Positions 21,562-37,312 of a DNA stretch of 64,000 nucleotides are shown here, piece by piece. Made by a program: the position numbers and the translations under genes. Each line of letters starts with the position of its first letter. Position 1 is the first letter of the stretch. Location: NCBI GenBank assembly GCA_963823995.1, contig CAWGNQ010000006.1, forward strand, positions 503,685 to 567,684, given 5' to 3'. The notes under the pieces were generated by a model, which saw only the letters and a list, made by a program, of their open reading frames with translations, made no database searches and was not told the origin of the DNA. Source of the DNA: an uncultured Acidobacteriota bacterium (GTDB lineage Bacteria > Acidobacteriota > UBA6911 > RPQK01 > JAPXNP01).

Positions 21562-22290
21562 CTACCACACTACGGTGCTGTTTCGCGGACCCAGCCGGAA
21601 GTAGAGCTGCCCCTGGAACGGAGTTCTATGCAGCGCTCCGGTGTCGTAGTCGACGATCTTTCGATCGAGAATGCGGAGTCCCGCCGCGTCAATCGTCCGG
21701 GCGATTTCAGCCGGGCTGAACAGGTAACCCCGACCGTGAAGCTTGCGGCTGCCGAAGACCAGGTCGAACTCTCTCGCACCGTTCTCGCTTCGGAAATGGA
21801 CGATGTCGTCGAGAAGGTTGCGGAACAGGGTTGTCCAGCCGTAGGCGCGGGCATTGTAACGATTGTGGACATCCATGTGCAGCGAGCCCCCCGGGGCCAG
21901 GAGGGAGGCCATCGTGCGGAGCGCCGCGACCCGCGCATCGAAGCCTCGAATGTGCCCGAGTACGTTCCACAGACAGGTCATGTTGTCGAAAGTCTGATCG
22001 GGAGGATGAAACTCCTCAATGGGGATGATATGGACACAGGAACATGATTTGCGGCAAAGGGACGCCATGGCCGGGCTCGGTTCGACCATCACCAGGCGCT
22101 CAATCCCGGCTCGGAGCACCAGCCGTTGTGCCCGGACCCCGTCTCCGGCGCCCACGTCGAGCAAGCTGTTTCCGGTCAGCCAGGGGGCGACGAGTCGATC
22201 GATGCTCGCCAGATACGCCGCGCGCCGTCCGGCGTATTCCCGAAAAAAGGGTGCGAGATCGTCATAGAACGCATCGGTTGAGCTCGTCAT
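21562..22290 (-). CDS. Class I SAM-dependent methyltransferase
   Basis: LLDVGAGDGVRAQRL (motif I) and MVEPSPAM (motif II). Divergent from the epimerase/aminotransferase/KamA gene run. Confidence 0.7.
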   Translation of the reverse strand: MTSSTDAFYDDLAPFFREYAGRRAAYLASIDRLVAPWLTGNSLLDVGAGDGVRAQRLVLRAGIERLVMVEPSPAMASLCRKSCSCVHIIPIEEFHPPDQTFDNMTCLWNVLGHIRGFDARVAALRTMASLLAPGGSLHMDVHNRYNARAYGWTTLFRNLLDDIVHFRSENGAREFDLVFGSRKLHGRGYLFSPAEIARTIDAAGLRILDRKIVDYDTGALHRTPFQGQLYFRLGPRNSTVVW

Positions 22291-22407: not shown

Positions 22408-23607
22408 ATGACCGGCAGCTTGCGTCGAATCGCATTCGTCACTACCTCGAGGGCCGACTACGGTCACCTCTACTGGCCCATGAAGGAGGTGCTGCAAGCT
22501 CCGCAGTTGGATCTGTCCCTGATCGTTCTCGGATCGCACCTGTCGCCCGAGTTCGGGCGAACCGTCGGAGAAATCGAACGAGACGGATTTCCGATCACCG
22601 ATCGCATCGAATGTCTGCTCAGTAGCGACAGTGACGTCGGGATGGCCAAGACCATCGGTTTGGCGACACTGAGTCTGGCCGAGGCGTTGGATCGACATCG
22701 ACCCGATCTGCTCGTCCTCATAGCCGACCGGTACGAAATGCTGGCCCCGGCATCGACCGCTCTGGCTCTCCGCATCCCCATCGTACATATCGAGGGTGGG
22801 GAAGTGAGCGAGGGAGCGATCGACGAAGCGGTCCGCAATGCCCTCACCAAATTGAGTCATATTCACTTGACGCCGACCGAAAGCTCGCGACGACGGGTTC
22901 TGGCGATGGGCGAGGAGTCTTGGCGGGTGCACCGGGTCGGCGCTCCTTCCCTCGATCACCTTTATCGGCGTCCGATTCCCGGACGGGAGGAGGTTGAGCG
23001 GGAACTCGGTGTCGATCTCGACATGCCGACGATCCTGGTTCTCTATCACCCTGTGACTCTGGCGCGGGACACTACGTTCGAGGCAGACTCGCTCTACGAG
23101 ATTCTGGCCGGGCTCGAACAGCAGATCCTGTTCTGTTTCCCCAATTCCGACGCCGGTAGTCGCGCACTGATCGAGCGGTCGCGAGTTTTTTGCCGGCATC
23201 ATCCAAAGGCCCGCCTGTTCGTAAATCTGGCACATTTGAAGTACTGGGCGCTGCTGCGACACGTCAGCCTCCTGGTCGGAAACTCGAGCAGCGGCATCAT
23301 GGAAACACCCTCGCTGTCCCTGCCGACGGTCAATGTAGGGATTCGGCAGCGTGGGCGGGAACGAGCCCGCAACGTCATCGACGTGGAATCGGAGCCCGAT
23401 GCGATTCGCAAAGGCATCCTGGAGGCGCTGCGACCTGAATTCCGCGCCTCGCTGGAGGGCCTGGTCAACCCCTATGGAGACGGGCATGCCTCCGAACGAA
23501 TCGTGCGGATCCTGAAAGAGGTCGAACTGGGGGACCGTCTCCTCATCAAGCCCGCGGTTCCGCTGATGCCTTCAGCCGAACCTGTTGCGGCCGTGCAGGA
23601 CCCATGA
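22408..23607 (+). CDS. UDP-N-acetylglucosamine 2-epimerase (hydrolysing), NeuC/LegG-like
   Basis: IAFVTTSRADYGHLYWPMKEVL, HLSPEFGRTVGEIERDGF, HIEGGEVSEGAIDEAVRNALTKLSHIHL and NSSSGIMETPSLSLPTVNVGIRQRGRE match the hydrolysing-epimerase family. Confidence 0.75.
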   Translation: MTGSLRRIAFVTTSRADYGHLYWPMKEVLQAPQLDLSLIVLGSHLSPEFGRTVGEIERDGFPITDRIECLLSSDSDVGMAKTIGLATLSLAEALDRHRPDLLVLIADRYEMLAPASTALALRIPIVHIEGGEVSEGAIDEAVRNALTKLSHIHLTPTESSRRRVLAMGEESWRVHRVGAPSLDHLYRRPIPGREEVERELGVDLDMPTILVLYHPVTLARDTTFEADSLYEILAGLEQQILFCFPNSDAGSRALIERSRVFCRHHPKARLFVNLAHLKYWALLRHVSLLVGNSSSGIMETPSLSLPTVNVGIRQRGRERARNVIDVESEPDAIRKGILEALRPEFRASLEGLVNPYGDGHASERIVRILKEVELGDRLLIKPAVPLMPSAEPVAAVQDP

Positions 23608-24755
23608 CGAAGGTTCCCCTTTCGTCACCCGATATTGGGCGCGAAGAGATCGAGGCGGTCGTCGACGTACTCGGCAGTGCGAGACTGAGCTGGGGTCCGC
23701 GGCTGAAGCAATTCGAAACAGAGTTCGCGCGATTTGTGGGACAGGAGTTTGCTGTTGGAGTCTCCAGCGGAACGGCCGCTCTGCACCTGAGTCTGCTGGC
23801 AGCCGGCGTCGGGGCAGGTGATCTGGTCGTAACCACTCCACTTTCCTTCATCAGCTCCGCCAACGCGGCATTGTACGTGGGTGCACGGCCCGTCTTTGTC
23901 GACGTCGAATCGAGGACAGGGAACCTCGATCCGAATCGGGTCTCCGATTGCGTTCGCAACCTACGCAGCGGCGGTCTGCCTGTTCGAGCCATTCTGCCCG
24001 TACATCTCTTTGGTCATCCCGCTGCAATGAACCCGCTTCTCGAAATTGCCCGGGAGAACGATCTGCTCGTCATCGAGGACGCATGTGAAGCATTGGGTTC
24101 CGAATATCGGGGGCGACAGGTCGGCAGCTTCGGGCATGCATCCGCCTTTGGGTTCTATCCGAACAAGCAGTTGACAACCGGCGAGGGAGGCATCGTCGTC
24201 ACCTCGGATCCAAAATGGGCCGACCTGTTCGAGTCTCTGCGAAACCAGGGGCGGGGCACCGGCTCGTCCGAGGCTGTGGCGGTCCGCCTCGGCTACAACT
24301 ACCGGCTGAATGAGCTGAGCGCCGCGCTCGGACTGGTCCAGTTGCGGCGATTCGACGATCTGCAACGGAAGCGCGCACGGGTCGTCGAATGGTACAGGCA
24401 GCGTCTCGAGGGCATCCATGGCATCGGACTTCCGGAGGTCCTGCCGGAAGCGACTCGAATGTCCTGGTTTCTCTTCCGTGTGATTCTGAGTGGTCCCGAG
24501 GAACGCGCGAGAGTCGAAGGCGCCTTGGCAGAGCGTGGCATTCCATCCCGCGGATACTTCACGCCGATTCACCTGCAGCCTTACTATCGGGAGCATTTCG
24601 GATTTCAGTCGGGCATGTTTCCAATCGCGGAACGTCTGGGAGGTTCTTCCCTGGCGCTTCCCTTTTCCAGCGTCATGACCGAGCAGCAGGTCGACATGGT
24701 CTGCCACGAACTCCGCCAGGTGTTCGAATCGCAGCGCCTGCATGCCGGTCATTGA
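23604..24755 (+). CDS. DegT/DnrJ/EryC1/StrS-family PLP-dependent sugar aminotransferase
   Basis: FAVGVSSGTAALHLSL, VIEDACEALGSEYRGRQVGSFG and SFYPNKQLTTGEGGIVVT (the PLP-lysine region). Overlaps the epimerase by 4 nt (ATGA). Confidence 0.8.
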   Translation: MTKVPLSSPDIGREEIEAVVDVLGSARLSWGPRLKQFETEFARFVGQEFAVGVSSGTAALHLSLLAAGVGAGDLVVTTPLSFISSANAALYVGARPVFVDVESRTGNLDPNRVSDCVRNLRSGGLPVRAILPVHLFGHPAAMNPLLEIARENDLLVIEDACEALGSEYRGRQVGSFGHASAFGFYPNKQLTTGEGGIVVTSDPKWADLFESLRNQGRGTGSSEAVAVRLGYNYRLNELSAALGLVQLRRFDDLQRKRARVVEWYRQRLEGIHGIGLPEVLPEATRMSWFLFRVILSGPEERARVEGALAERGIPSRGYFTPIHLQPYYREHFGFQSGMFPIAERLGGSSLALPFSSVMTEQQVDMVCHELRQVFESQRLHAGH

Positions 24756-24959: not shown

Positions 24960-26360
24960 ATGAGACACGTTCGAATGACCGAAAGGAGGAGCGCTACCGC
25001 GCCGTCGATGCCGGCTCGCGAAAGCGAAGCCGAGCTCGACCATCCTCCGCCCCTTCCGACCGCTACGGTGTCCGCACGCTCCGCGCCGACACCATCGGAT
25101 TCTTCTCCTTTTCCCGCAAGACAACCGTTTCCGCAGGCTCAGTGGGCCGACTGGCGCTGGCAGTTGCGTCATCGCATCCGGTCGGTCGAACAGCTCCTGG
25201 AGTATTTTCCCGGAGTCCAGGAAACGGACGCCTTGAGGCAGGCCTCGGACCGATTCCCTCTGGCCGTTACGCCCTACTATGCCTCACTCATCCGCAGCGT
25301 CGGGGTCGACGACCCGGTCTACCAGATGGCGGTGCCCCAAGTCGGAGAGCTCTTCGACGGACCGTTTCTCACCGAAGACCCACTGTCCGAGGATGAAGAC
25401 ATGCCGGTCCCCGGTCTGGTCCATCGCTACCCGGACCGAGCACTTCTGATTGCGACGTCCGCGTGTGCGGTCTACTGTCGTCACTGTACGCGTAAACGGG
25501 TCACGGGCCACCGGGAAACCATGATCAGCCGCACCGATCTGGACCTCGTCATCGGGTATCTGCGGCAGCACCCGGAAATTCGGGATGTCATCGTCTCGGG
25601 CGGAGATCCGCTGACTCTGGCTACCGAGGTACTGGAAGAGATCCTCGCCGCCCTGCGTGCCGTGCCGTCCGTGGAGATCATCCGGATCGGCACCCGAACT
25701 CCGGTGACACTGCCCATGCGCATCACCGATGAGCTCGTCGAGATGCTGCGGCGCTACCACCCGGTCTTCGTCAATGCGCACTTCAATCATCCGGTGGAAC
25801 TGACGGCCGACTCAACCGAGGCCTGCCTCAGACTCGCGGACGCAGGCATTCCCCTCGGCAATCAGTCGGTCCTGCTGCGGGGGGTCAATGATTCCCCACT
25901 GGTCCTCGAGACGCTCTTCCGGTCTTTGTTGCGCATTCGAGTGCGTCCGTACTATCTGTTTCAGTGTGACCTCGTGAGAGGAGTCGAGCATTTCCGTACG
26001 CCCATTTCGAGGGGATTGGAGATCATGGAGTACCTGCGGGGCCGGTTGAGCGGTCTGGCAATTCCGACCTTTGTCGTCGATGCTCCACACGGCGGTGGAA
26101 AGATCCCCCTGCTGCCGACCTATATTCTCTCCATGAGCCCGACCCACACGGTACTGCGCAACTTCGAGGGGCTGATCGTCTCCTATCCGGAACCGGCCGC
26201 CGCGGAGCTCCAGCTTCCCGGTTCGGCCCGCGACGGGACGCGGGGGGGAGTCTGGGAGGTTGCCACAGGAAGGCGGTCCCACCTGCAGCCGGAACAGATG
26301 GAGCGGCAGGAGCGACGGTCCGCGAATGGGCGATCTCGTCGGACAGGTGAACCTCGATGA
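24960..26360 (+). CDS. KamA-family radical-SAM 2,3-aminomutase (lysine 2,3-aminomutase-like) with a Pro/Ser-rich N-terminal extension
   Basis: Radical-SAM CAVYCRHCTRKR (CxxxCxxC), VIVSGGDPL, and the KamA core WQLRHRIRSVEQL...LLRGVNDSP...YYLFQCDLVRGVEHFRT. The substrate (lysine, glutamate or arginine) cannot be read from the sequence by eye. Confidence 0.8.
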   Translation: MRHVRMTERRSATAPSMPARESEAELDHPPPLPTATVSARSAPTPSDSSPFPARQPFPQAQWADWRWQLRHRIRSVEQLLEYFPGVQETDALRQASDRFPLAVTPYYASLIRSVGVDDPVYQMAVPQVGELFDGPFLTEDPLSEDEDMPVPGLVHRYPDRALLIATSACAVYCRHCTRKRVTGHRETMISRTDLDLVIGYLRQHPEIRDVIVSGGDPLTLATEVLEEILAALRAVPSVEIIRIGTRTPVTLPMRITDELVEMLRRYHPVFVNAHFNHPVELTADSTEACLRLADAGIPLGNQSVLLRGVNDSPLVLETLFRSLLRIRVRPYYLFQCDLVRGVEHFRTPISRGLEIMEYLRGRLSGLAIPTFVVDAPHGGGKIPLLPTYILSMSPTHTVLRNFEGLIVSYPEPAAAELQLPGSARDGTRGGVWEVATGRRSHLQPEQMERQERRSANGRSRRTGEPR

Positions 26361-28099
26361 TTCGGATTCGCCGGGTCTACAGCACAGCGCTCTCCGTCGA
26401 TCGACAGCGCCTCGATCAAGTTCGGCAGATCTTCCGGGCGAACTTTCCTTCGGTGGCCGGATATGCCGACACGCTGGCCCACAAGCTCGATCATCCGTTC
26501 AAATACGGCTATCGTACCTTCCTGCTGGTCAGTGAATCGTCGCTCGCCAAGGTCACCGGATTCTCGCTTTTGCTTCATTTGCCGGAGGTCAACAGCACGG
26601 TCCTCGACTTCATCGCGGTCGGTCGAACGATTCGAGGCGGTGGCGTCGGCACTGCCCTCTACGAGTCCACGCAAAGTTACCTGAAATCCATCGGTTCACG
26701 AGGTCTCTACATGGAGGTGCTCCCGGATGATCCCGCGGTCGTCAAGGATCGCCGCGAACTGAGGGAGAATCGGCGTCGACTCGCTTTCTACGAAGCCCAC
26801 GGTGTTTTTCCGGTCATCGGAACCGAATATGAAACGCCCATCGACGAGTCGCCCGCACCCTATCTGCTGTTCGATCCCCTCGGCCGTAAGGGGCCTCTCC
26901 GCCGATCCGAGGCGCGGAACGTCGTACGCCTTCTGCTGGAGCGCAAGTACTCACACGTGGTTCCACCGGCCTATATCGAGCGGGTCGTCGAGTCCTTCAC
27001 GGATGATCCGGTGCGCATGCGGGAGCCGCGCTATGGCGGCGAGAAGCCCGGCCAGGCAATTCCGCGGGTTTCCGGGAGCGAGTTGCTGGCGCGCCCTTTC
27101 ATCCTGGTTTACGATGATCGGCACCGCGTCCACCATGTCCGTGAGCGGGGCTATGTCGAACGCCCGGCGCGCGTCAAGGCGCTGGTCGAGTCACTGCGGC
27201 CGACCGAGCTCTTCAATGTCGAGGCGCCCCGGAATCACGGCGAGAGTGCGATCCGGAGGGTCCATGACGGTGGTTTCGTCTCATATCTGAAGGCCGTCTG
27301 CCGGACCCTGGAGCAGGCGAAGCCGGTCTATCCGTACGTCTTCCCGATCCGACGCCCCGACCGTAAACCCCGGGAGCTGGCCATCCGTGCGGGCTATTAC
27401 TGCATCGATACGTTTACTCCGCTCGACCGGAATGCCTATGAAGCCGCCCGGGCCTCGGTCAATGTGGCCCTGTCCGCCATGGAAAAGCTGATTCGGGACG
27501 GGTCCGGACTCGCCTATGCTTTGTGCCGGCCACCCGGTCACCATGCCGAGCGCAAGGCATTCGGAGGTTTCTGCTATTTCAACAACGCGGCGATTGCCGC
27601 CAGTGAGCTGAGCCGTTTGGGGCCGGTCGCGCTGCTCGACCTCGATTTTCACCACGGAAACGGAACGCAGGACATCTTCTATCGACGATCGGACGTCTTG
27701 ACCGTTTCGGTTCATGGACATCCGAATTACGCCTATCCCTATTTCTCCGGCTTCGGCGATGAGACGGGCGAAGGGGAGGGGAAGGGCTTCAACTTCAATT
27801 TTCCTCTGCCGGAGGAGTCCGGACCCGAGCGTTACTTCGAAACGCTGCAGAAAGCTCTCAAACAGGTTCATCAGTTCAAGCCTCGTTTCCTCGTTGTTTC
27901 GCTCGGCTTCGACACGATGACGGGAGATCCCACCGGGGCCTTTCTGCTGACGGCGGCCTCCCTCCGGGAAATCGGTCGTCGATTGGGGCGCCTGAACCAC
28001 CCGACCCTCGTCGTGCAGGAGGGTGGCTACAACCTGCGTAACCTTCGCCGGGGTGCTGTTGCGTTCTTTTCGGGTTTTGGAGAGGCATTGTGGACCTGA
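26357..28099 (+). CDS. Fusion protein: N-terminal GNAT acetyltransferase plus C-terminal class-II HDAC-like / acetylpolyamine amidohydrolase deacetylase
   Basis: N-terminal GNAT motif A DFIAVGRTIRGGGVGTALYE. C-terminal HDAC signatures CRPPGHHAERKAFGGFCYFNNAAIAA and LDLDFHHGNGTQDIF with the downstream GFDTMTGDP. Overlaps the kamA-like gene by 4 nt. Confidence 0.75.
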   Translation: MIRIRRVYSTALSVDRQRLDQVRQIFRANFPSVAGYADTLAHKLDHPFKYGYRTFLLVSESSLAKVTGFSLLLHLPEVNSTVLDFIAVGRTIRGGGVGTALYESTQSYLKSIGSRGLYMEVLPDDPAVVKDRRELRENRRRLAFYEAHGVFPVIGTEYETPIDESPAPYLLFDPLGRKGPLRRSEARNVVRLLLERKYSHVVPPAYIERVVESFTDDPVRMREPRYGGEKPGQAIPRVSGSELLARPFILVYDDRHRVHHVRERGYVERPARVKALVESLRPTELFNVEAPRNHGESAIRRVHDGGFVSYLKAVCRTLEQAKPVYPYVFPIRRPDRKPRELAIRAGYYCIDTFTPLDRNAYEAARASVNVALSAMEKLIRDGSGLAYALCRPPGHHAERKAFGGFCYFNNAAIAASELSRLGPVALLDLDFHHGNGTQDIFYRRSDVLTVSVHGHPNYAYPYFSGFGDETGEGEGKGFNFNFPLPEESGPERYFETLQKALKQVHQFKPRFLVVSLGFDTMTGDPTGAFLLTAASLREIGRRLGRLNHPTLVVQEGGYNLRNLRRGAVAFFSGFGEALWT

Positions 28100-28174: not shown

Positions 28175-29164
28175 ATGAAGACAGGTCTGGTCTACGATCT
28201 ACGCGATGACTATCTGGCCGAAGGCTGGACGGCCGAAGAGGCGGCTGAGTTCGATTCCGTGTCGACGATCGACGCACTCGTGGAGGCATTGGGCACTCTG
28301 GGGCACGATGTCGAGCGGATCGGGCATGCTCGGCGCCTTTGTGCCCGAATCGTCGAGGGTGCTCGATGGGATCTCGTCTTCAATATCGCGGAGGGCGTGA
28401 AGGGGAGAAGTCGCGAGGCTCAGGTTCCGGCCCTGCTCGAACTGTTCGACATTCCCTATACTTTTTCCGATCCGCTGGTCTGTGCGGCAACCCTCGACAA
28501 AGCCGTTGCGAAGCGGCTGGTCCGTGATGCCGGTCTGCGGACGCCTGATTTCGTTGTTCTCCGCAACCCTGCGGAGATTGCGTCGGTCGACCTGGTTTTT
28601 CCGCTCTTCGTCAAGCCTCTTGCGGAAGGAACGGGGAAGTGGATCGACTCGACTTCAAGGGTCGAGGATCACGAGGGTCTGCAGAGCGTCTGCATGAGTC
28701 TCCTGGCCCGCTCCGGCCAGCCCGTTTTGGTCGAGGAGTACCTCCCGGGTCGGGAGTTTACGACGGGGATCGTCGGTACCGGCTCCCGGGCACAGATCGT
28801 TGGCAGCATGGAGATCACCATCCGCCAGAGCGCCGGAACGGCCGATTATTCCTACACAGTCAAGCAGGAGTGGCGGGAGTTGTGCGACTATCCCGTCCTG
28901 GAGCCGGGAGGGCTGAAGGACGAGGTCGAGAGACTCGCACTGGATTCCTACCTCGCCCTCGAGTGCCGGGACTTGGCCCGGGTGGACCTGCGGCTGGATC
29001 GCGACGGACGCCCCTCCTTCGTCGAGATCAATCCGCTGCCGGGCTTGAATCCCGTCTATTCCGATTTGCCGATTCTCTCGCGCCTGAACGGATGGGAGTA
29101 CGTTGACATCATTCGGGCGGTCGTGGACAGTGCCCTGGAACGGCATGAAGGAGGTGGGCGATGA
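28175..29164 (+). CDS. ATP-grasp ligase, D-alanine-D-alanine ligase (Ddl)-like
   Basis: FPLFVKPLAEGTGKWI, VLVEEYLPGREFTTGIVG and RVDLRLDRDGRPSFVEINPLPGL are ATP-grasp motifs of Ddl-type amino-acid ligases. 329 aa. Confidence 0.7.
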   Translation: MKTGLVYDLRDDYLAEGWTAEEAAEFDSVSTIDALVEALGTLGHDVERIGHARRLCARIVEGARWDLVFNIAEGVKGRSREAQVPALLELFDIPYTFSDPLVCAATLDKAVAKRLVRDAGLRTPDFVVLRNPAEIASVDLVFPLFVKPLAEGTGKWIDSTSRVEDHEGLQSVCMSLLARSGQPVLVEEYLPGREFTTGIVGTGSRAQIVGSMEITIRQSAGTADYSYTVKQEWRELCDYPVLEPGGLKDEVERLALDSYLALECRDLARVDLRLDRDGRPSFVEINPLPGLNPVYSDLPILSRLNGWEYVDIIRAVVDSALERHEGGGR

Positions 29165-30699
29165 AGCCGGCTGAGGTCCTGATTCTCCACAACCTGCCGG
29201 CGGAGCAACCAGCTGTGGGCCTGGAGCGATTTCCGGAATCGGATGAGGGGGTTCTCCGTGAGGCAGCTGCGGTCGCAGACGCCCTTGTGCGGCTCGACGT
29301 CGGATTTCGCAGGGCCGGCGTTCGCACCTTCGAAGACGTGGTCAGTGCCGTCTCGGGAGGGAGAGAATGGCTGGTCGTGAACCTCGTCGAGAGTCTGGGG
29401 GCTGATGCCGCCGACGCCTGCTACGTCCCGATGGTGTGTCGTGCTTTGGGGCGGCAGTTCACCGGAAGTGACAGCCGTTGTCTTGCGATGACCCTGGACA
29501 AGAATCTGGCGAAGTGCGTCTTGCGGTCGCAGGGTGTGCGGACGCCGCAATGGCTTTTCGTGCCTCGCGGCAGTGACGTCGTGACGCACCCGGATCTCGT
29601 TTTTCCGGTCATCGTCAAGCCGGTCGCCGCGGATGCCAGCGAAGGCATCGACCCGGCTTCTGTCGTGAGGCAGCCGGGCATGGAACTGGTGTCGGCCATC
29701 CGGAGGATCCACGAGCGGATGGGACAGGACGCCCTGATCGAGGAGTTTGTGGCGGGCAGAGAATTCAATATTTCGCTTCTTCAGCGAGGCACCGCTCTCG
29801 AAGTCCTGCCGCCGGCGGAGATCGAGTTCGTCGACTTTCCGGCGGGAAAGCCTCGTATTGTGGACTATGCGGCCAAATGGCTTCCCGCCACCTTCGAGTA
29901 CCGGAACACGGTTCGAAAGGTCCCTGCCGAAGTGGACGGACCTCTGGCAAGCGAGATCCGATCGATCGCCCTGGCCGCTTGGGCCGCGGCCGGATGCGGA
30001 GACTATGCGCGGGTGGATCTGAGACTCGACGGCCAGGGAGTGCCGTTTGTCCTTGAAGTGAATGCGAACCCCGATATTTCCCCGGATGGCGGTTTTTCGG
30101 CGGCTCTCGAGGCCGCCGGTGTGACGTTTGCGGACTTTGTGGCGAGTCTCCACGAGAATGCTTCGGCCCGAAGGCGTCCCCTGCAGCTACCGACTCGACG
30201 GATCACGGTCGATGACCGTCTTCGGATTCGCAGGACCGAGGCCGGTGACCGGGACGGGATCGTCAGCCTTCTTTCGGCGACGGGCTTTTTCAAACCGGAC
30301 GAGCTCACGGTCGCAGCTGAAGTGCTTGACGGGACCGTTGCACCGGACAGCACGCATTATCAGTCCTACACGTGCGAGCAGGACGGTTTTCCGGTCGGGT
30401 GGGTCTGCTGGGGCCCCACACCCTGCACGCAGGGAACGTTCGATCTCTACTGGCTGGCAGTCTCGCCGCTCGAGCAGGGGAGGGGCATCGGGAGGCTTCT
30501 GATGCAGTTTGCCGAGGAAAGCATCCGGGACCAGGGTGGGAGGATCATCGTGGTCGAGACCGCCGGCCGCTCGGAGTACGCACCGACGCGGGCGTTCTAT
30601 ACGAGAATCGGCTACTGGGAGCAGGCAAGACTGGTCGACTTCTATGCTCCCGGTGACGACAAGGTCCTTTTCACGAAGCAGTTTCCGCTCGGTGTCTGA
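29161..30699 (+). CDS. Fusion protein: Ddl-like ATP-grasp ligase plus C-terminal GNAT acetyltransferase
   Basis: ATP-grasp: FPVIVKPVAADASEGI, LIEEFVAGREFNISLL and RVDLRLDGQGVPFVLEVNANPDIS. The C-terminal ~170 aa form a GNAT (LAVSPLEQGRGIGRLLMQFA). Overlaps the previous gene by 4 nt. Confidence 0.75.
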   Translation: MKPAEVLILHNLPAEQPAVGLERFPESDEGVLREAAAVADALVRLDVGFRRAGVRTFEDVVSAVSGGREWLVVNLVESLGADAADACYVPMVCRALGRQFTGSDSRCLAMTLDKNLAKCVLRSQGVRTPQWLFVPRGSDVVTHPDLVFPVIVKPVAADASEGIDPASVVRQPGMELVSAIRRIHERMGQDALIEEFVAGREFNISLLQRGTALEVLPPAEIEFVDFPAGKPRIVDYAAKWLPATFEYRNTVRKVPAEVDGPLASEIRSIALAAWAAAGCGDYARVDLRLDGQGVPFVLEVNANPDISPDGGFSAALEAAGVTFADFVASLHENASARRRPLQLPTRRITVDDRLRIRRTEAGDRDGIVSLLSATGFFKPDELTVAAEVLDGTVAPDSTHYQSYTCEQDGFPVGWVCWGPTPCTQGTFDLYWLAVSPLEQGRGIGRLLMQFAEESIRDQGGRIIVVETAGRSEYAPTRAFYTRIGYWEQARLVDFYAPGDDKVLFTKQFPLGV

Positions 30700-30945: not shown

Positions 30946-31293
30946 TCAGCGCGAGGCGTGGGCCGCCTGTTGAATGGGCATACCCGCTTCCCGCCAGGCC
31001 TTCATCCCGCCTTCATAGCGGTCGACATGCTCGTAACCTTCCGACTCCAGTTTCTTGGCGGCGGTTTCGGAGGCCGTACAGTCGGACCCGGCACAGTAGA
31101 CGACGATTCGGTGCTCCTTATTCTCCGCTCGTCTGCCGACTTCTCTCAGGAAATCTTCGCGTTCGAGCGGAATGTTCAGTGAGCCCGGAATATGTCCCTC
31201 ATCAAAACTATCCTCGCCCAGCACGTTGATCAAAAGGAAGTCCTCTTTGCGCTTTCTCATATCTTTCAATTCGTCAGTTGACAGCTTTCTCAT
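30946..31293 (-). CDS. Single-domain rhodanese-like sulfurtransferase
   Basis: 115 aa; FLLINVLGEDSFDEGHIPGSLNIP...IVVYCAGSDCTAS (rhodanese active-site loop with Cys). GGAAGGAAAGG Shine-Dalgarno 5 nt upstream of the ATG. Confidence 0.7.
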   Translation of the reverse strand: MRKLSTDELKDMRKRKEDFLLINVLGEDSFDEGHIPGSLNIPLEREDFLREVGRRAENKEHRIVVYCAGSDCTASETAAKKLESEGYEHVDRYEGGMKAWREAGMPIQQAAHASR

Positions 31294-31600
31294 AATGACC
31301 TTTCCTTCCTGATCCTCTGTGACGATAAGTCACATTGGATCATATATTTAAATGATCATATATCTATGTTTCCGAAAATTCGTTGCGAGCACTGTAAAGT
31401 GCCATTTACATAGTCATACAACCAACAAATTAATTATATCAATGGATAGGTCGCATTTCAAAGATGGCTTTGCTGACGTCGAGTCACAGTCACACCACAG
31501 CTCATATAGCATCACAGCCGTGATGATCGGAGGCACCCCGCTCTGTCGCGGGCCGGGTTCGGCGACGCGACACCGCTTCACTGAGGTACTTCTCGCGCTA
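31294..31600. other. AT-rich ~300-bp non-coding spacer between the encapsulin and rhodanese genes, carrying the direct repeats GATCATATAT (31339-31348 and 31354-31363)
   Basis: GC content is strikingly lower than the surroundings. There is no convincing ORF (the listed 107-aa and 77-aa ORFs have no support). A 7-bp inverted repeat TGTCGCG...CGCGACA lies at ~31539-31567, just 3-prime of the encapsulin stop. Confidence 0.5.
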
Positions 31601-32404
31601 TTGCGTCTTCCACTGAATGGGAATGACGGCTGTGCCGTCGAGGACACGAAACGTGAATGTCTCGGTGAAGTATAGCTGGACCTTCCTGGTGTCGTGGTGG
31701 TGGTAGCCGATGGCCAAGTCCTGCCCCAAGGTCAGCTTCATGTCCCCGCCGCGCAAGGAGACGAGCACGGTCTCCTGGAGGAACGGACTGAGGATGATCG
31801 GATTCCCGAGCAGCCGTTCGAGGTGCGTCTTCAGCGGGTAGCACTGGTTGTGTTCGCTGATGCCCTGCCAGAGCTTCGAACCGGCGACCAGAACGTAAGG
31901 CCCATCCACGCCGTTCCGAGCGAATTTGGTGATCCCCACTGCTACGGCCTCGAGCAGGTTTGCGGGATCACCGGAAAAGCTGAGTTCGTCGTACTTGCTG
32001 CACTCGCGCAGACCTTTGATCCCACCGGCGGAAAAACCGTGGTAGATCGCCTGTTCTTCGAACATCGCGATCTTGCGGGCGGCATCTTCCAGGGGGAGGA
32101 GATCGATCGCCTCGTCGCCCCGGGAGGCATTGTCCAGCTCCCAGACATCCAGTTCGAAAAGAATACGAGACTCGATGAGGGGACGAACGGCTCGGATTCC
32201 AAATCCGACTTCTCCCATCGAGGCCTCGTCGGCGTTTGTAAGGCGGCCCAGGGGAACGGCCGAGTAGTCCCATCCGTGGGGACCTGCCACATCGACGATC
32301 CGACGTCCGGACAGGGATGCCCGCAGGACCTCCTGTGCTCGGTGGTCGATGGACTTCCAAGCGGCTTCGGTGATGGGTGCGAGTTCTCTTCTCAAGATGT
32401 TCAT
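31598..32404 (-). CDS. Family 1 encapsulin nanocompartment shell protein (linocin M18-like, HK97 fold)
   Basis: MNILRRELAPITEAAWKSIDHRAQEVLRASLSGRRIVDVAGPHGWDYSAVPLGRL...ILFELDVWELDN...GPYVLVAGSKLW...GQDLAIGY...QLYFTETFTFRV aligns along its whole length with T. maritima-type encapsulins. AAGGAG Shine-Dalgarno 6 nt upstream. Confidence 0.9.
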   Translation of the reverse strand: MNILRRELAPITEAAWKSIDHRAQEVLRASLSGRRIVDVAGPHGWDYSAVPLGRLTNADEASMGEVGFGIRAVRPLIESRILFELDVWELDNASRGDEAIDLLPLEDAARKIAMFEEQAIYHGFSAGGIKGLRECSKYDELSFSGDPANLLEAVAVGITKFARNGVDGPYVLVAGSKLWQGISEHNQCYPLKTHLERLLGNPIILSPFLQETVLVSLRGGDMKLTLGQDLAIGYHHHDTRKVQLYFTETFTFRVLDGTAVIPIQWKTQ

Positions 32405-32439: not shown

Positions 32440-32799
32440 CTATTCGTTCAGTTCCCTGAGACCACCGATGCTCAGCCCCTCTCCCGGAGATCCTCCTTCA
32501 GCTGAATCCGAGTCCTCTCCGATCGAGGTGATGTCTCCCTCGGTAAACAGGTAGGTGTGCATTCGTGCGTCCCAGCCCGGCATGTTGCGTCGCAACCATT
32601 CGAGCGTCATGCAGGCATGTTCCATTTCCTCGTCTCGATTGTGGGCGAGGATGGCCTTCAGCTCCTCGTTGTCGGACGATGCGATACGCTGCTGGTACCA
32701 GTCTACAGCTTCGACTTCCTCGATCAGACTGCGCAGGGCCCGTACGTAATCGCGGTCCTGCTCAGACATTTGCTCCGGCGGCTCGTGGTAATCGGTCAT
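32440..32799 (-). CDS. Encapsulated ferritin-like cargo protein (EncFtn/Flp) with C-terminal encapsulin targeting peptide
   Basis: The start is set at the internal ATG 32799 (GGGAGG Shine-Dalgarno 5 nt upstream). EEVEAVDWYQQRIASSDNEELKAILAHNRDEEMEHACMTLEWLRR is nearly identical in pattern to characterised EncFtn proteins. The C-terminal EGLSIGGLRE matches the GSLxIGSL cargo-loading motif. Confidence 0.85.
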   Translation of the reverse strand: MTDYHEPPEQMSEQDRDYVRALRSLIEEVEAVDWYQQRIASSDNEELKAILAHNRDEEMEHACMTLEWLRRNMPGWDARMHTYLFTEGDITSIGEDSDSAEGGSPGEGLSIGGLRELNE

Positions 32800-33070
32800 C
32801 TGAACCTCCCGTCGGTTTGTTGGATTTTCAATCGGCGGCGGTGTGAGCCCAACGACTCTCGAATCGAGCCCTGCTGGCAAGCGGAAAAAGTTGTCTACAA
32901 ATGACTTACATGGTGCCGCCGCTTTCAGTATACAGAGCTGCGGAGGAAACCGACAAGCGATGGGGACGAATACCGGAGAGCGCCACCCCGACTTGCCAAC
33001 TCCGGCCCGGGCCGGTCGCCAAGGGCTGAGGAGTTCCTGGAAAGGAGACCGGAGCCTGGAAACGGGAAAA

Positions 33071-33114: not shown

Positions 33115-35517
33115 CTACTGGGAGGAGCGTTGGAACTCCAGCCGTCCGAGATTGTAGCCTCCCACGGGCATCTCGAGCCGCAGCGTGTGGTTCCCCGCGT
33201 TCAGGAGAAGACCGACGAGGTGTAGGGACATCCAGTTCTGCCAGCCACCGGTCAGGGGAACCGGAATCGGCTGCGGCGAAAGTGCCGTGCCGTCCCACCG
33301 GACCTGCAATCGACCTCCGGTCTGCGGCGTAGCGACCCGGATCTCCAGGTCGTAGAGCCCGGTCTCACCGACATTCACGGTATAGGAGAGCCACTCGCCG
33401 GTCTCGATCCAGCCCACGTCGAAGGGCGCGCCATCCGGATCGGTCGAGGTCTCGATGTCGACCCCGTCGTTGCGATATTGCCACCCCATGTTCCAGGGCG
33501 TACTGTCGACGTAGTTGTCCCGCTGTGAGCGTCCGTCGTGATAGGAAGTTCCGTCGGTTCCCAGGTCGTAGTCGACCGCATCGATCACGCCGGGAATCGT
33601 CAGTTCGCGAGAGGGAACCGGGGCGGTGCCGCGATTCGGATCGAACAGCGCAAACAAAACATCCGGATGCTCGGTGCAGGATGAGAGTGCGAGATGGTCG
33701 GCCATATCGAGGAGCGCCGTTCGGGCCGAATCGGCCGTCGGACGAACGGTCGTGCGACCTTCCCAGTAATCCAGAAGGCTCTGGTAATCGGGAGGGATGG
33801 GCGCGGAGACCGGGCTCGAGATCGTTTCGAGCTTCTTGTGGGTCCACCAGCACCAACCGATGTCGCCGCGTTCAACCAAGTCCACCGATTGAGTCGCCCA
33901 GACATTCGAATTCTCTCCGAACTCCCCGAGCCACAAAGGCGCCTGCGTGGTCTGCCGGAGATTCAGGAATGCCTGGATGGAGTTCCGGTCGGTCCCGTTC
34001 CAGTACTTGTGAAAGCTGTAGACGAGGTTCGAATCGAACGGTGGAGTGAGATTCGAGAAATCCGTGGCGTACCAGCTCCCCTCTATGAAGAGTATATGGT
34101 CGGGATCGACCTCACGAACGGCACTCGCCAGTCGGATGTAGAGGGACCGGAGATCCTGATTGCTCGTTCCCTGGGGCATGACCGGCTCGTTCAGCAGGTC
34201 GTAGCCGATCAACCAGGGATCATCGGCGAACCGGCGGGCGATCTCCCGCCAGATGCGCACGCTGAGATCGCGATGCGATTGACCGGCAGCGCCCCAGAGA
34301 AGAGCGCCTGTATCCTCCGGACTGTCCGAGATGTTGTCGCCGTTTTGTCCGCCCGGTGCACAGTGCATGTCGAGGACGACCGCAAGGCCGTGGCGACCAC
34401 ACCAGTCGAGGAGACGCCTCAGCAGAAGAAAGCCTTCCTCCCTGAAGCCGTCGCTCGACGGATCGTAGATGTCGAGGTAGTGGAACGGCAGACGAATCGA
34501 ATTGAAGCCCCAGCGAGCGATCTGGTCGATGTCCGCTTCGGTCACGTAGCATTCCCGGTAACGGGCGAAGAATTCACGCGTCGTCTCTTCACCGGCCAGG
34601 TCCTGGATCATGTTCCGGATCGAGGTCGGCGATCCGTACCCGGGCAAGTGCAGGATGTAACCTTCGGGGACCAGCCAGCCGCCGAGGTTGATGCCCCGAA
34701 GGAGAATCGGGTCACCGAGCGGGTCGAGGATGCGAGTCTGCGCTGTCCGGAAATAGCCGGAGGTCGGGGAGGGGAGTGTCATCAGGGCCCCGTCGGCCCC
34801 CCGCTGGACGAGAGCCATCGTCGCGACGGGTCCTCCCTGTGTGACCTCCAGCGTCATACTTCCGAGGAACGGGGCGGGATGCTCCTCGAAATAGGTCTTG
34901 AAGAATTCGGCTTCCGTGATGAATTTGCTGAGTTGTCGATGAGGCTCGAGCGTGATATCCCCTTCGGTCACGACCTCACCGGCGGAGTCCTGAAGTGAGG
35001 TGTGCACCTTTGTTGAACGTGTGCCGGGATTGTAGATCGCGACGGCTGTGCTCTCGCTTTGCGTGACCCGGACGACCTGTCGTTGACTTGCTGCGGCCGT
35101 CGAAGCAGGGACGGAGACGAGGTGCCCCAGAACTTCGTAGACCAGGATCCCCGTCAGCGAGGCCCCGGGCGGAGCGAAGCTCACCACAACGGTGCCGTTC
35201 AGAAGCGCACCCGTTCCGTCGGTCTGAAGCTCGAACGTCCCGAGAGGTGGAATTTCGAAAGAGGCCGAACTGAGATCGGTACCGCCGATCGGGACTGTCA
35301 AAGCCGTGCTGTCGGGAGCGAAGAACCGGATCTCACCCGAGACGGCAGCCTGACTCTGATTCATCAAGGTCAATCGGCTGCGGTTCGGAAGGCCACCCTC
35401 GACGGTGCCGTTGACGAACTGCGGGAAGAGCAGATTGGCTCCCCAGGCGGTGGAAATGTCCGGGTAAACGAGGAACGCAAAGTAGACCACAAGGAGGATT
35501 TCAACAGCTCGACGCAT
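33115..35517 (-). CDS. Secreted GH5 endo-glycanase (cellulase family) with an N-terminal Ig-like region and a C-terminal CBM6/35-like domain
   Basis: The start is set at the internal ATG 35517 (MRRAVEILLVVYFAFLVYPDISTAWG signal). GH5 motifs GINLGGWLVPEGY, FNSIRLPFHY, AVVLDMHCAPGGQNG and LIGYDLLNEPV. The C-terminal TGGRLQVRWDGT...GGYNLGRLEF is CBM-like. Confidence 0.75.
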   Translation of the reverse strand: MRRAVEILLVVYFAFLVYPDISTAWGANLLFPQFVNGTVEGGLPNRSRLTLMNQSQAAVSGEIRFFAPDSTALTVPIGGTDLSSASFEIPPLGTFELQTDGTGALLNGTVVVSFAPPGASLTGILVYEVLGHLVSVPASTAAASQRQVVRVTQSESTAVAIYNPGTRSTKVHTSLQDSAGEVVTEGDITLEPHRQLSKFITEAEFFKTYFEEHPAPFLGSMTLEVTQGGPVATMALVQRGADGALMTLPSPTSGYFRTAQTRILDPLGDPILLRGINLGGWLVPEGYILHLPGYGSPTSIRNMIQDLAGEETTREFFARYRECYVTEADIDQIARWGFNSIRLPFHYLDIYDPSSDGFREEGFLLLRRLLDWCGRHGLAVVLDMHCAPGGQNGDNISDSPEDTGALLWGAAGQSHRDLSVRIWREIARRFADDPWLIGYDLLNEPVMPQGTSNQDLRSLYIRLASAVREVDPDHILFIEGSWYATDFSNLTPPFDSNLVYSFHKYWNGTDRNSIQAFLNLRQTTQAPLWLGEFGENSNVWATQSVDLVERGDIGWCWWTHKKLETISSPVSAPIPPDYQSLLDYWEGRTTVRPTADSARTALLDMADHLALSSCTEHPDVLFALFDPNRGTAPVPSRELTIPGVIDAVDYDLGTDGTSYHDGRSQRDNYVDSTPWNMGWQYRNDGVDIETSTDPDGAPFDVGWIETGEWLSYTVNVGETGLYDLEIRVATPQTGGRLQVRWDGTALSPQPIPVPLTGGWQNWMSLHLVGLLLNAGNHTLRLEMPVGGYNLGRLEFQRSSQ

Positions 35518-35614
35518 TGCGCCCGAGTCTAACAGTCCTCGTCGCGAAATCGCCAGCGAAAGCGGGTCGGGAGCGGAGGGAGCCGTGAGTTCCCGGCGCT
35601 GCTTCCGATCTTCG

Positions 35615-37312
35615 TCAGTACCGTTCTTGCCCGGGGAGCAGCGGATCCAGAGGGGAGGCATACCAGGAAGATCCTCCCTCGACCAGGTTCCAGCCCCAGT
35701 CGACCGAGAGGCCCAGGCCCAGAGGCGTACGCACTCGTAACTCGACTCCGGCATCTGCAAGCCAGCCCTGTGACCGTGGCGTACGCGGTGCTCCCCACGC
35801 CCTTCCAAAATCGAGAAACGGGGCCAGTTCGATGTCGAGCAGGCCGTTGCTCCACAGCCGCTTCTCGATTTCCGAGCGGACCAGATGCTTCCGCGTACCG
35901 AACGGGGCATTGCCTTTGAATCCGTCGAATGTAGCGATGTGGCCACGCAATCCCGTGGGATCATCACGGTCGAATCCGATGAAGAAGAGCGCATCGAGGG
36001 CCGGAGAGCCTCCAATAACGCCGCCCCGATAGGCCAGCCCCACCCGCCAGTCGAGCTCTCCCGGATCGAGATACGCGGATAGATCTGCGCCTCCTTCAAA
36101 CCGGATCATCCGCGTGCGCCGGCCAGCCAGGGTGCCTCTGCCGGTCAAGCGGCCGAGTGCCCTCAGCTCGAGCCGGTGCTTCGGCAGGTAGACCAGAGTT
36201 CTTTCGAGGCTCGTAGAATATTCGAGTGACCAGCCGTTCCAGTGCAAGGCGCCGGGCGTCGGCTCATGACTCCCGAAATTGAATTTCCTCCACACCAGGC
36301 GGGGGCCGCCGGACCAGTGCCAGCGGGCACCCGGGATCCAGTCGAGCTGAAAGCCGATCGACCTGTGCTCGAGCCCATAGACAGGAAACTGCCCGTTGCG
36401 ATCGGGTCCGTTGCCCCGCAGCTTCCAGTCCTCGTCTCGGAGGTCGGTTCCGAGAGACCAGCGCCACTGAGGATGGAGGGCAAACGGCCTTTCCAGGCGG
36501 CTCAGTAGCCTCTCTTTGCGAGCATCCCAACGAAAGAGCGTGTTGAGGTTCATCGCGGCTCGGTCCAGGTTGAACAAATCGGCGTGGATCGTCTGGTAGG
36601 GAAGTCCGCGCGCTGCCGAAAACAGCGCAGACTTCCTTCCGCCGAGCAAACCACGTCGTTCGAGCGCCGAAACGATGACCGTGAATCTCGAGTCCCGGTC
36701 CGGGTCGAGGCGGACGTTCAGACCCGTGTAAAGATGGAGTGTCGTCAGCTCCGCCAGCGTGTCGCGCAGCTCCTGCAATCGAAGAGTCTCTCCGGGTACG
36801 ATCGGAATGAGCCGGTTCCGGAGCAGAGGATCCAATCGCGTCCCCGACTCCAGTCTGACCCCCGAGATTTTCGGCTTGTCGATTCGATTCCAGAACTCCA
36901 AAGTCGAGGGGAGGTCTCCGCTGAGATAGCAGGTCGTACCGAGAAGGTCGAGGGCATAGGGATCTCCCGGGTTGAGGTGTAGGGCCCGCTCGACAAATCG
37001 TCGGGCCCGGTCCAGGTCACGGACTGTAAATGCCAACCCTCCCAGCTCGAGAGGAAAGCGGTAGTCGTCCGGAAAGCGCTCGCGCCCCGTTTCGAGGGTC
37101 GACCTGGCCGATTCGCTCCGGCCCAAACGAGCCTCCGCGAGCCCCCGGTAGTAGAGGACATCGGCGGCAGGAAGCGGCAGCCCGTCGGTCAGTTGCAGCA
37201 CTTCGTTCCAGCGCCCTGCCTGTGCGAGCCGACGCAGATCCTCGCGGTCCTCGGAAGGCCCGGCAAGCAGGGTACACGTAAGACTCAGAAGCAGAACTGT
37301 GCTGCGGAGCAT
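35615..37312 (-). CDS. TPR-repeat protein with a C-terminal outer-membrane beta-barrel-like domain (Omp85/ShlB-like)
   Basis: Signal MLRSTVLLLSLTCTLLAG. TPR-like helices (YYRGLAEARLG, RALHLNPGDPYALDLLG). The C-terminal half is rich in alternating hydrophobic/aromatic beta-strand patterns and ends in an aromatic residue. Domain family is an inference. Confidence 0.5.
   Translation of the reverse strand: MLRSTVLLLSLTCTLLAGPSEDREDLRRLAQAGRWNEVLQLTDGLPLPAADVLYYRGLAEARLGRSESARSTLETGRERFPDDYRFPLELGGLAFTVRDLDRARRFVERALHLNPGDPYALDLLGTTCYLSGDLPSTLEFWNRIDKPKISGVRLESGTRLDPLLRNRLIPIVPGETLRLQELRDTLAELTTLHLYTGLNVRLDPDRDSRFTVIVSALERRGLLGGRKSALFSAARGLPYQTIHADLFNLDRAAMNLNTLFRWDARKERLLSRLERPFALHPQWRWSLGTDLRDEDWKLRGNGPDRNGQFPVYGLEHRSIGFQLDWIPGARWHWSGGPRLVWRKFNFGSHEPTPGALHWNGWSLEYSTSLERTLVYLPKHRLELRALGRLTGRGTLAGRRTRMIRFEGGADLSAYLDPGELDWRVGLAYRGGVIGGSPALDALFFIGFDRDDPTGLRGHIATFDGFKGNAPFGTRKHLVRSEIEKRLWSNGLLDIELAPFLDFGRAWGAPRTPRSQGWLADAGVELRVRTPLGLGLSVDWGWNLVEGGSSWYASPLDPLLPGQERY

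Follow-up and report, generated by a model that had tools for sequence, protein, structure and literature searches.

A conserved cassette of a KamA-type aminomutase, two divergent Ddl-like ligases and an acetyltransferase, with an N-acetylated beta-lysine amide as its possible product

What do two adjacent Ddl-like ATP-grasp ligases make when the second of them carries its own acetyltransferase domain? The question is raised by a 64,000-nucleotide stretch of DNA from an uncultured Acidobacteriota bacterium (GenBank assembly GCA_963823995.1, contig CAWGNQ010000006.1, positions 503,685 to 567,684 of the forward strand; G+C about 60%), here called the window. In it, the gene for a stand-alone ligase, Ddl1, is followed by a gene for a second ligase, Ddl2, fused to a C-terminal GNAT domain (Ddl2~GNAT). 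The original prediction, made from the window alone, proposed that the two are divergent paralogues that build a two-amide product stepwise. We find that both belong to a small gene cassette that recurs across many phyla, that both have lost the residues with which canonical enzymes bind D-Ala, and that a lysine 2,3-aminomutase-like gene (KamA) is a regular member. Our reading of the whole, formation of beta-lysine followed by two ligations and by N-acetylation that is reversible where a deacetylase is present, has in our estimate an even chance of being right.

The cassette genes and their domains in the window are as follows.

24960-26360, + strand: KamA-family radical S-adenosylmethionine (SAM) enzyme at the head of the cassette, predicted L-lysine 2,3-aminomutase (matches PDB 2A5H)
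26357-28099, + strand: fusion of a GNAT-like domain to an acetylpolyamine-amidohydrolase-type deacetylase, 580 aa (PF00850, E=3.8e-75; PF00583, E=8e-5)
26417-26737, + strand: weak N-terminal GNAT-like domain of this fusion, residues ~21-127 (PF00583, E=8e-5)
27155-28072, + strand: deacetylase domain of the same fusion, residues 267-572 (PF00850, E=3.8e-75)
28175-29164, + strand: Ddl1, stand-alone Ddl-like ATP-grasp carboxylate-amine ligase, 329 aa (PF07478, 3.3e-24)
29161-30699, + strand: Ddl2~GNAT, Ddl-like ATP-grasp domain fused to a C-terminal GNAT domain, 512 aa
29161-30180, + strand: ATP-grasp domain of Ddl2, residues 1-340
30181-30216, + strand: inter-domain linker, residues 341-352, poorly conserved and of low model confidence
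30217-30699, + strand: C-terminal GNAT domain, residues ~353-512, with an intact acetyl-CoA motif, QGRGIG

The coordinates and domains first assigned to the two ATP-grasp genes and the fused GNAT are correct; the GNAT~deacetylase gene between KamA and Ddl1 had been overlooked. The four genes are translationally coupled or closely spaced. The KamA stop and the start of the deacetylase fusion share an ATGA overlap, as do Ddl1 and Ddl2~GNAT (4 bp), and the start of Ddl2~GNAT is preceded by a ribosome-binding site, GAAGGAGG. A scan for promoters and terminators gave nothing informative.

The ligases

The ATP-grasp parts of Ddl1 and Ddl2 are 34% identical over 246 residues. Public entries for these proteins carry the names 'D-alanine--D-alanine ligase' and 'GNAT family N-acetyltransferase', which are generic or wrong. 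The first of these names, together with the fact that the best Pfam and PDB matches of both ligases are to Ddl, favors the most ordinary explanation, namely two isozymes of cell-wall synthesis that form D-Ala-D-Ala (or D-Ala-D-X). The family models argue otherwise. The best NCBIfam Ddl model scores 143 bits with Ddl1 and 106 bits with Ddl2 against a cutoff of 243; the cutoffs are at least 243 for every Ddl/Van model, and all those that match (39 for Ddl1, 37 for Ddl2) fall below them. In BLAST comparisons with E. coli DdlA or DdlB or with VanA, only the C-terminal ~250 residues of the two proteins align, at 25-30% identity; in the controls, DdlA and VanA align with each other from end to end and DdlB does so over the whole or the greater part of its sequence, at E-values from 1e-47 to 1e-78.

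Residues were compared in 48 Ddl1 and 51 Ddl2 sequences aligned with E. coli DdlB, which also supplies the numbering. Those that serve ATP, Mg2+ and the acyl-phosphate (K97, K144, E180, E187, K215, R255, D257, E270 and N272) are invariant or nearly so in both sets, and the two ligases are on this basis predicted to have the Ddl-type fold of the ATP-grasp superfamily and to be catalytically competent. The D-Ala determinants are lost. H63 is replaced by Glu in all Ddl1 and all Ddl2 sequences (48/48 and 51/51), S150 is Ser or Thr in Ddl1 and Ala in Ddl2, and Y216 is variable in Ddl1 and Trp in every Ddl2. In Ddl2, G276 has become Asp, and the carboxylate-binding pair S281/L282 is gone, with an acidic NPDISPD loop in its place. 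E15 of Ddl binds the ammonium of the acyl donor, and an acidic residue is kept at this position in both clades, in an N-terminal region where the alignment to DdlB is less certain. The extra acidic residues in the pocket would fit substrates with additional positive charge, such as beta-lysine or similar diamines.

A neighbor-joining (NJ) tree, computed without bootstrap and with DdlA, DdlB, VanA and sequences from Neisseria, Prevotella and Streptomyces as references, separates Ddl1 (49/49), Ddl2 (52/52) and the canonical enzymes (6/6) into three monophyletic groups, so that both ligases lie outside the DdlA/DdlB/VanA clade. The genomic context differs as well: no mur or fts genes accompany Ddl1 and Ddl2 in the window, where their partners are KamA and GNAT. 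We therefore reject a canonical Ddl or Van identity on family cutoffs, D-Ala-binding residues, tree placement and context alike, and consider the cell-wall explanation extremely improbable. The original prediction had named, as the outcome that would speak against it, a placement of both proteins inside canonical Ddl with D-Ala residues conserved; cutoffs, residues and tree give the opposite, and its view of divergent paralogues that are neither of them canonical is borne out. Both proteins are best read as active ligases of the Ddl fold with a new specificity.

The cassette across genomes

In a database clustered at 90% identity, over 1,300 homologues share the architecture of Ddl2~GNAT, and its family makes up 1,288 clusters at 50% identity (E<=1e-30). 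An identical protein is encoded on a metagenomic contig of 911 kb. The nearest genome loci are in metagenome-assembled genomes (MAGs) of Acidobacteriota, at 71% and 68% identity. We compared eighty genome loci. The bacterial ones come from Acidobacteriota, Planctomycetota, Verrucomicrobiota, Lentisphaerae, Eisenbacteria, Bacteroidota, Ignavibacteria, Chlorobiaceae, Gemmatimonadota, Dehalococcoidia/SAR202, Desulfobacterota, Myxococcota, and Alpha- and Gammaproteobacteria, and the archaeal ones from Bathyarchaeota and Nitrososphaerales. Conservation was counted in the 52 loci that have at least 3 kb of flank on both sides. Ddl1 is adjacent in 49 of the 52, GNAT is fused or adjacent in 47, and KamA lies within 5 kb in 46. 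The association is conserved, and KamA is its rule rather than an oddity of the window.

All-against-all clustering of the flanking open reading frames, with Pfam counts on 109 immediate neighbors, yields one other conserved neighbor, a TetR regulator (10 loci), and no conserved transporter, carrier protein or efp gene beside the cassette. This bears on the idea of a secreted secondary metabolite, in which the ATP-grasp ligases would put together a small cationic peptide that acts as an antibiotic or antimetabolite, like the dapdiamides or the beta-lysine antibiotics, and acetylation would be self-protection. Exporter, resistance and tailoring genes are not conserved, and so tiny a cassette spread over well over ten phyla, archaea included, would be unusual for an antibiotic cluster; we consider this explanation improbable.

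The genes are joined in different ways in different lineages. The window and most loci of Acidobacteriota and of the Planctomycetes-Verrucomicrobia-Chlamydiae (PVC) group have the Ddl2~GNAT fusion; in others, such as Bacteroidota, Gemmatimonadota, Dehalococcoidia and Sumerlaeota, all genes are separate; and in a third state Ddl1 and Ddl2 form a single protein of 640-730 aa (our entries P0219, P0221, P0234 and P0251). The one locus of this last kind that we looked up (P0221; L095, 6001-8109) has KamA upstream of Ddl1~Ddl2, a free GNAT gene downstream and a sigma-54 activator as neighbor. The order Ddl1-Ddl2-GNAT is collinear throughout. Because it holds in each of these fusion states, the comparison argues strongly for placing the three activities in a single pathway as successive steps. 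A single stepwise pathway that includes the acetyltransferase, as originally proposed, is thus very probable on collinear synteny and the Rosetta-stone fusions Ddl1~Ddl2 and Ddl2~GNAT. The company of KamA, by contrast, had been presented as exceptional, and is instead the defining conserved context.

Literature searches, which covered papers outside subscription-only access, found no published description of the cassette. All of its component families are known; what is new is their conserved association, the pair of Ddl-like clades and the product that these imply. Thousands of database proteins named 'D-alanine--D-alanine ligase' or 'GNAT family N-acetyltransferase' belong to it, and almost certainly neither kind has a cell-wall job.

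Predicted supply of beta-lysine

The KamA of the window matches the lysine 2,3-aminomutase of Clostridium (2A5H) with E=4.5e-136. The CxxxCxxC motif and both Asp residues that bind the epsilon-ammonium (D293 and D330 of 2A5H) are kept in it and in all 54 of 54 cassette KamAs, and the role of these two residues in holding the epsilon-ammonium of lysine is established for the family. By these residues the cassette enzymes are predicted to be lysine 2,3-aminomutases of the KamA/AblA type. The best-scoring model for the window protein is AblA (TIGR03820), with 506 bits against a cutoff of 525.4. AblA is also the best model for nine KamAs of related loci, at 438-508 bits, all of them below the cutoff. 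Such scores mark the cassette KamAs as a sister group of the AblA of the osmolyte pathway.

The model for EpmB reaches 248 bits with the window KamA, against a cutoff of 369, and neither an EpmA (class II aaRS-like) gene nor efp is a conserved neighbor; the EpmA/EpmB system for beta-lysylation of elongation factor P (EF-P) was set aside. Another reading is protein modification in general, in which the ligases would beta-lysylate or extend a protein (in the manner of EF-P or of RimK/LysX) and the GNAT would acetylate that same protein. We judge this highly improbable.

The acetyltransferase and deacetylase domains

The C-terminal domain of Ddl2~GNAT has the GNAT fold and the acetyl-CoA pyrophosphate-binding motif Q/R-x-x-G-x-G/A. 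The linker that joins it to Ddl2 is a series of gap-rich columns of variable length in the alignment of homologues, and in the AlphaFold model the predicted local distance difference test (pLDDT) score falls below 50 at residues 344-346. It lies at the very point at which GNAT becomes a separate gene in other lineages. The fused GNAT and the GNAT-like domain of the deacetylase fusion are not close paralogues of one another.

AblB was considered for the acetyltransferases and rejected: neither the fused GNAT, nor the GNAT-like N-terminus of the deacetylase fusion, nor the archaeal GNAT of locus L069 matches TIGR03827 at E<=1. An analogy with the mycothiol and bacillithiol pathways, offered with the original prediction, also had to be given up. 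The operon and its flanks contain no glycosyltransferase of the MshA/BshA type, no LmbE-type deacetylase and no Cys ligase, and the MshD model reaches only E=0.06 (12.6 bits). In neither pathway is the ligase known to be of the ATP-grasp type or to be joined to a GNAT. The PDB holds a 'putative D-alanine N-acetyltransferase' from Desulfovibrio (2R7H), a structural-genomics entry for an unfused protein, which seems to owe its name to fusion partners annotated as Ddl. Our literature search, again outside subscription-only papers, found nothing on its function.

The best PDB matches of the deacetylase domain are acetylpolyamine amidohydrolases (APAHs): 6PHR (E=3.5e-75, residues 268-574), 9GKZ, 3MEN and 3Q9B. 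The motifs CRPPGHHA, DxDxHHGNGTQ, GxDT and EGGY align with those of the APAHs, with the HH, D..H and D/Y residues kept; on this similarity and on its zinc and catalytic motifs the domain is predicted to be an APAH, of the class II histone deacetylase-like kind. The fusion protein belongs to a large and well conserved family, about 60% identical across phyla, and is present in 8 of the 80 genome loci. Three homologues were sampled (from a complete Spirochaetaceae genome, a Sumerlaeota MAG and a Logan assembly), and all three lie between KamA and Ddl1 in TetR-KamA-fusion-Ddl1-Ddl2-GNAT operons; in locus L071 the gene is instead found between Ddl2 and its GNAT. The deacetylase fusion is an optional but dedicated member of the cassette. 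A dedicated member of the APAH type points to an aminoalkyl amine as the group that is acetylated. In the complete Spirochaetaceae genome (L092), an mttB gene situated some 3 kb away from the cassette also contains a pyrrolysine insertion element (PYLIS_3, positions 341-440).

The predicted pathway

What follows on substrates, succession of steps, product and physiological role is our inference from these data. Ddl2~GNAT would be the last enzyme of a self-contained operon of KamA, GNAT~deacetylase, Ddl1 and Ddl2~GNAT. KamA would convert L-lysine to (3S)-beta-lysine (3,6-diaminohexanoate), as its conserved substrate residues suggest. Ddl1 and then Ddl2 would form one amide bond each, with ATP and by way of an acyl-phosphate, the chemistry of their ligase family; that they act consecutively is proposed because of gene order and fusions. 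The GNAT fused to Ddl2 would N-acetylate a free amino group with acetyl-CoA, after or just before ligation, and so cap or neutralize the product, and the APAH-type domain could remove such an acetyl from an aminoalkyl chain, which would allow the charge state to be tuned. We would expect as product a small N-acetylated di- or tri-amide that contains beta-lysine and stays inside the cell; candidates are N-acetyl-beta-lysyl-beta-lysine and a beta-lysyl-X conjugate. It would most likely serve as a metabolite resembling a compatible solute or a polyamine.

A more specific version of this reading falls somewhat short of an even chance. In it, the cassette specifies a new, very widespread and N-acetylatable oligo-amide of beta-lysine, such as acetyl-(beta-lysyl)n or a beta-lysyl-diamine. 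A new pair of Ddl-like clades, mislabeled in present databases as D-Ala-D-Ala ligases, would make it, and it would serve anaerobic bacteria and some archaea as a polycation that can be tuned or as a compatible solute. Should the prediction be borne out, it would add a new branch of beta-lysine metabolism to N-epsilon-acetyl-beta-lysine, EF-P lysylation, lysine fermentation and the beta-lysine antibiotics, and new substrate specificities to the Ddl fold, an antibiotic target family. The metabolite would be abundant in Planctomycetota, Verrucomicrobiota, Acidobacteriota, Bacteroidota, Gemmatimonadota, Desulfobacterota, Chloroflexota and some archaea. With only three or four genes, the prediction can be tested directly by heterologous expression.

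Several points count against the beta-lysine pathway. Whatever is said here of the chemistry of a member, past the labels 'active ATP-grasp ligase' and 'acetyl-CoA-dependent GNAT', is an inference. The alignment to DdlB at the E15 position is of low certainty, since BLAST aligns the C-terminal ~250 residues only, and the NJ tree of the ligases, with its six references, carries no bootstrap values. Nor does the GNAT resemble AblB, even at the permissive threshold given above. We found no signal of osmotic stress: the window and 25 related loci contain no Na+, c-di-AMP or lysine riboswitch, and many of the source habitats are freshwater, groundwater or digesters. Finally, six of the 52 loci lack KamA, and five of these are Desulfobacterota loci that stand behind a homospermidine operon; the substrate may thus be something other than beta-lysine in some lineages, and the amine partner may be a polyamine.

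Variant loci and the amine partner

The five Desulfobacterota loci (L036, L042, L052, L076 and L077; for example, L076:6352-11540) are of particular interest for the substrate. In four of them Ddl1-Ddl2-GNAT overlaps, or begins 16-35 nt after, the gene for PvlArgDC, a pyruvoyl arginine decarboxylase; in L077 the distance is 404 nt. An arginase-family gene is found upstream in four, and a deoxyhypusine-synthase-family (SpeY-like) gene in three. The trio of deoxyhypusine-synthase-family, arginase-family and PvlArgDC genes constitutes the agmatine/SpeY route to homospermidine (PMC13625781). In the two loci scanned for it, L036 and L042, a small class I SAM methyltransferase lies downstream of the module.

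These loci are part of the case for our main rival explanation, polyamine conjugation, in which the ligases would join beta-lysine or another amino acid to primary amines of the polyamines that the cell itself contains (putrescine, homospermidine or agmatine) and so form aminoacyl-polyamines, two ligases for two terminal amines, with GNAT and APAH tuning the charge. That the deacetylase is closest to acetylpolyamine amidohydrolases is in keeping with this, and so is an acidic acceptor pocket in Ddl2 without the carboxylate-binding S281/L282; beta-lysine itself carries, as we see it, a putrescine-like skeleton with the same 1,4-diamine spacing. Polyamine genes are adjacent in one lineage only, however, where the housekeeping genes for RecJ, RimI and PyrK/D also lie on the same strand and the arrangement may be mere synteny, and they are not enriched among the 109 neighbors elsewhere. 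We regard polyamine conjugation as unlikely.

A further case is found on plasmid pTHIMO01 of Thioflavicoccus mobilis (L085, 4464-9945), where a distant Ddl-like ligase occurs with SbnA, an SbnB-like cyclodeaminase, a diaminobutyrate transaminase and a KamA-family gene. The SbnA/SbnB-like genes point to 2,3-diaminopropionate, and the cluster is possibly a pathway for a diamino-acid peptide. Together, the Desulfobacterota and pTHIMO01 cases tie this Ddl-like branch to di- and polyamino compounds. The search of plasmids gave only more distant, single ATP-grasp relatives, in Thioflavicoccus and on rhizobial plasmids. The rhizobial one is an ATP-grasp protein that stands alone and shares 33-37% identity with the Ddl2 domain, and it occurs on pNGR234a and about 14 other plasmids; in the one locus inspected, on the symbiosis plasmid pNGR234a of Sinorhizobium fredii (L084, 7773-10855), its gene adjoins a CapA-family gene.

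Relation to characterized systems

From the Ddl/VanA family the ligases are set apart by clade, scores and D-Ala pocket residues, and by partners that are KamA and GNAT rather than mur and fts. MysD is a precedent for the recruitment of Ddl-type ATP-grasp enzymes to small-molecule biosynthesis; it acts on mycosporine-glycine and clusters with dehydroquinate synthase (DHQS), O-methyltransferase and ATP-grasp genes. No DHQS or O-methyltransferase genes are found here; the difference from MysD is one of gene context. The APAHs 6PHR, 3Q9B and 3MEN align end to end with the deacetylase domain, zinc and catalytic motifs included, but the domain is here fused to an N-terminal GNAT-like domain and embedded in a KamA/ligase cassette.

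In archaea and bacteria, an acetylated osmolyte is made from beta-lysine (PMC9337991). The cassette resembles this AblA/AblB system for N-epsilon-acetyl-beta-lysine insofar as an AblA-type aminomutase and a GNAT share one operon and would yield an acetylated derivative of beta-lysine. It falls outside that system, with KamA below the AblA cutoff in all ten proteins tested and a GNAT that is not AblB-like, and it differs further in that two ATP-grasp ligases are added, which implies amide bonds beyond simple acetylation.

A second osmolyte system offers a formal analogy. According to PMC8070244, citing Sagot et al. 2010, the single polypeptide Ngg combines GNAT N-acetylation with peptide-bond formation and gives an N-acetylated dipeptide, the osmolyte N-acetylglutaminylglutamine amide (NAGGN). 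Shared with our cassette are an acetyltransferase and a ligase in one protein and a small dedicated operon under a repressor; in the cassette, however, the substrate would be supplied by KamA and not be glutamine, and there are two ligases and an optional deacetylase. Asn_synthase, as expected for an Ngg/AsnO system, is absent from the operon genes and not enriched in the 109 flanking genes, and no membership at the sequence level is seen.

Surrounding genes

Two genes directly upstream of the cassette, on the same strand, overlap each other by 4 bp.

22408-23607, + strand: NeuC-like hydrolysing UDP-GlcNAc 2-epimerase (TIGR03568, 424 bits, above cutoff)
23604-24755, + strand: DegT/PseC-like aminotransferase (PseC/LegC models below cutoff)

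With a NeuC above its cutoff and a PseC/LegC-like aminotransferase in this position, one might think of a lineage-specific sugar decoration, in which the cassette and NeuC/DegT together N-acylate an amino sugar like nonulosonic acid with beta-lysine-derived groups. L003 and L004, the Acidobacteriota loci nearest to the window, share this arrangement; the other 78 lack it. The gap between DegT and KamA is 204 nt in the window and 500-700 nt in L003 and L004, and the window has no adjacent dehydratase, NeuB-type synthase, CMP-transferase or glycosyltransferase. A decorated sugar is, in our view, decidedly improbable. NeuC and DegT were rejected as core members of the cassette, being syntenic in those two loci only, and are probably neighbors that form a separate unit. 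Near this pair lies a divergent SAM methyltransferase gene (21562-22290, - strand).

Directly downstream of the cassette, a group of genes is found on the opposite strand: a rhodanese (30946-31293, -), an encapsulin shell protein (Linocin_M18; 31598-32404, -) and an EncFtn-like encapsulated ferritin (32440-32880, -). The rhodanese and encapsulin genes are syntenic in the two closest Acidobacteriota loci too. Beyond them, the region 33115-37312 (-) encodes a cellulase with CBM6/CBM35, a TPR protein, a C39/C70-type peptidase, GH2 and GH127, a gene set that indicates a polysaccharide-degrading lifestyle of the source organism.

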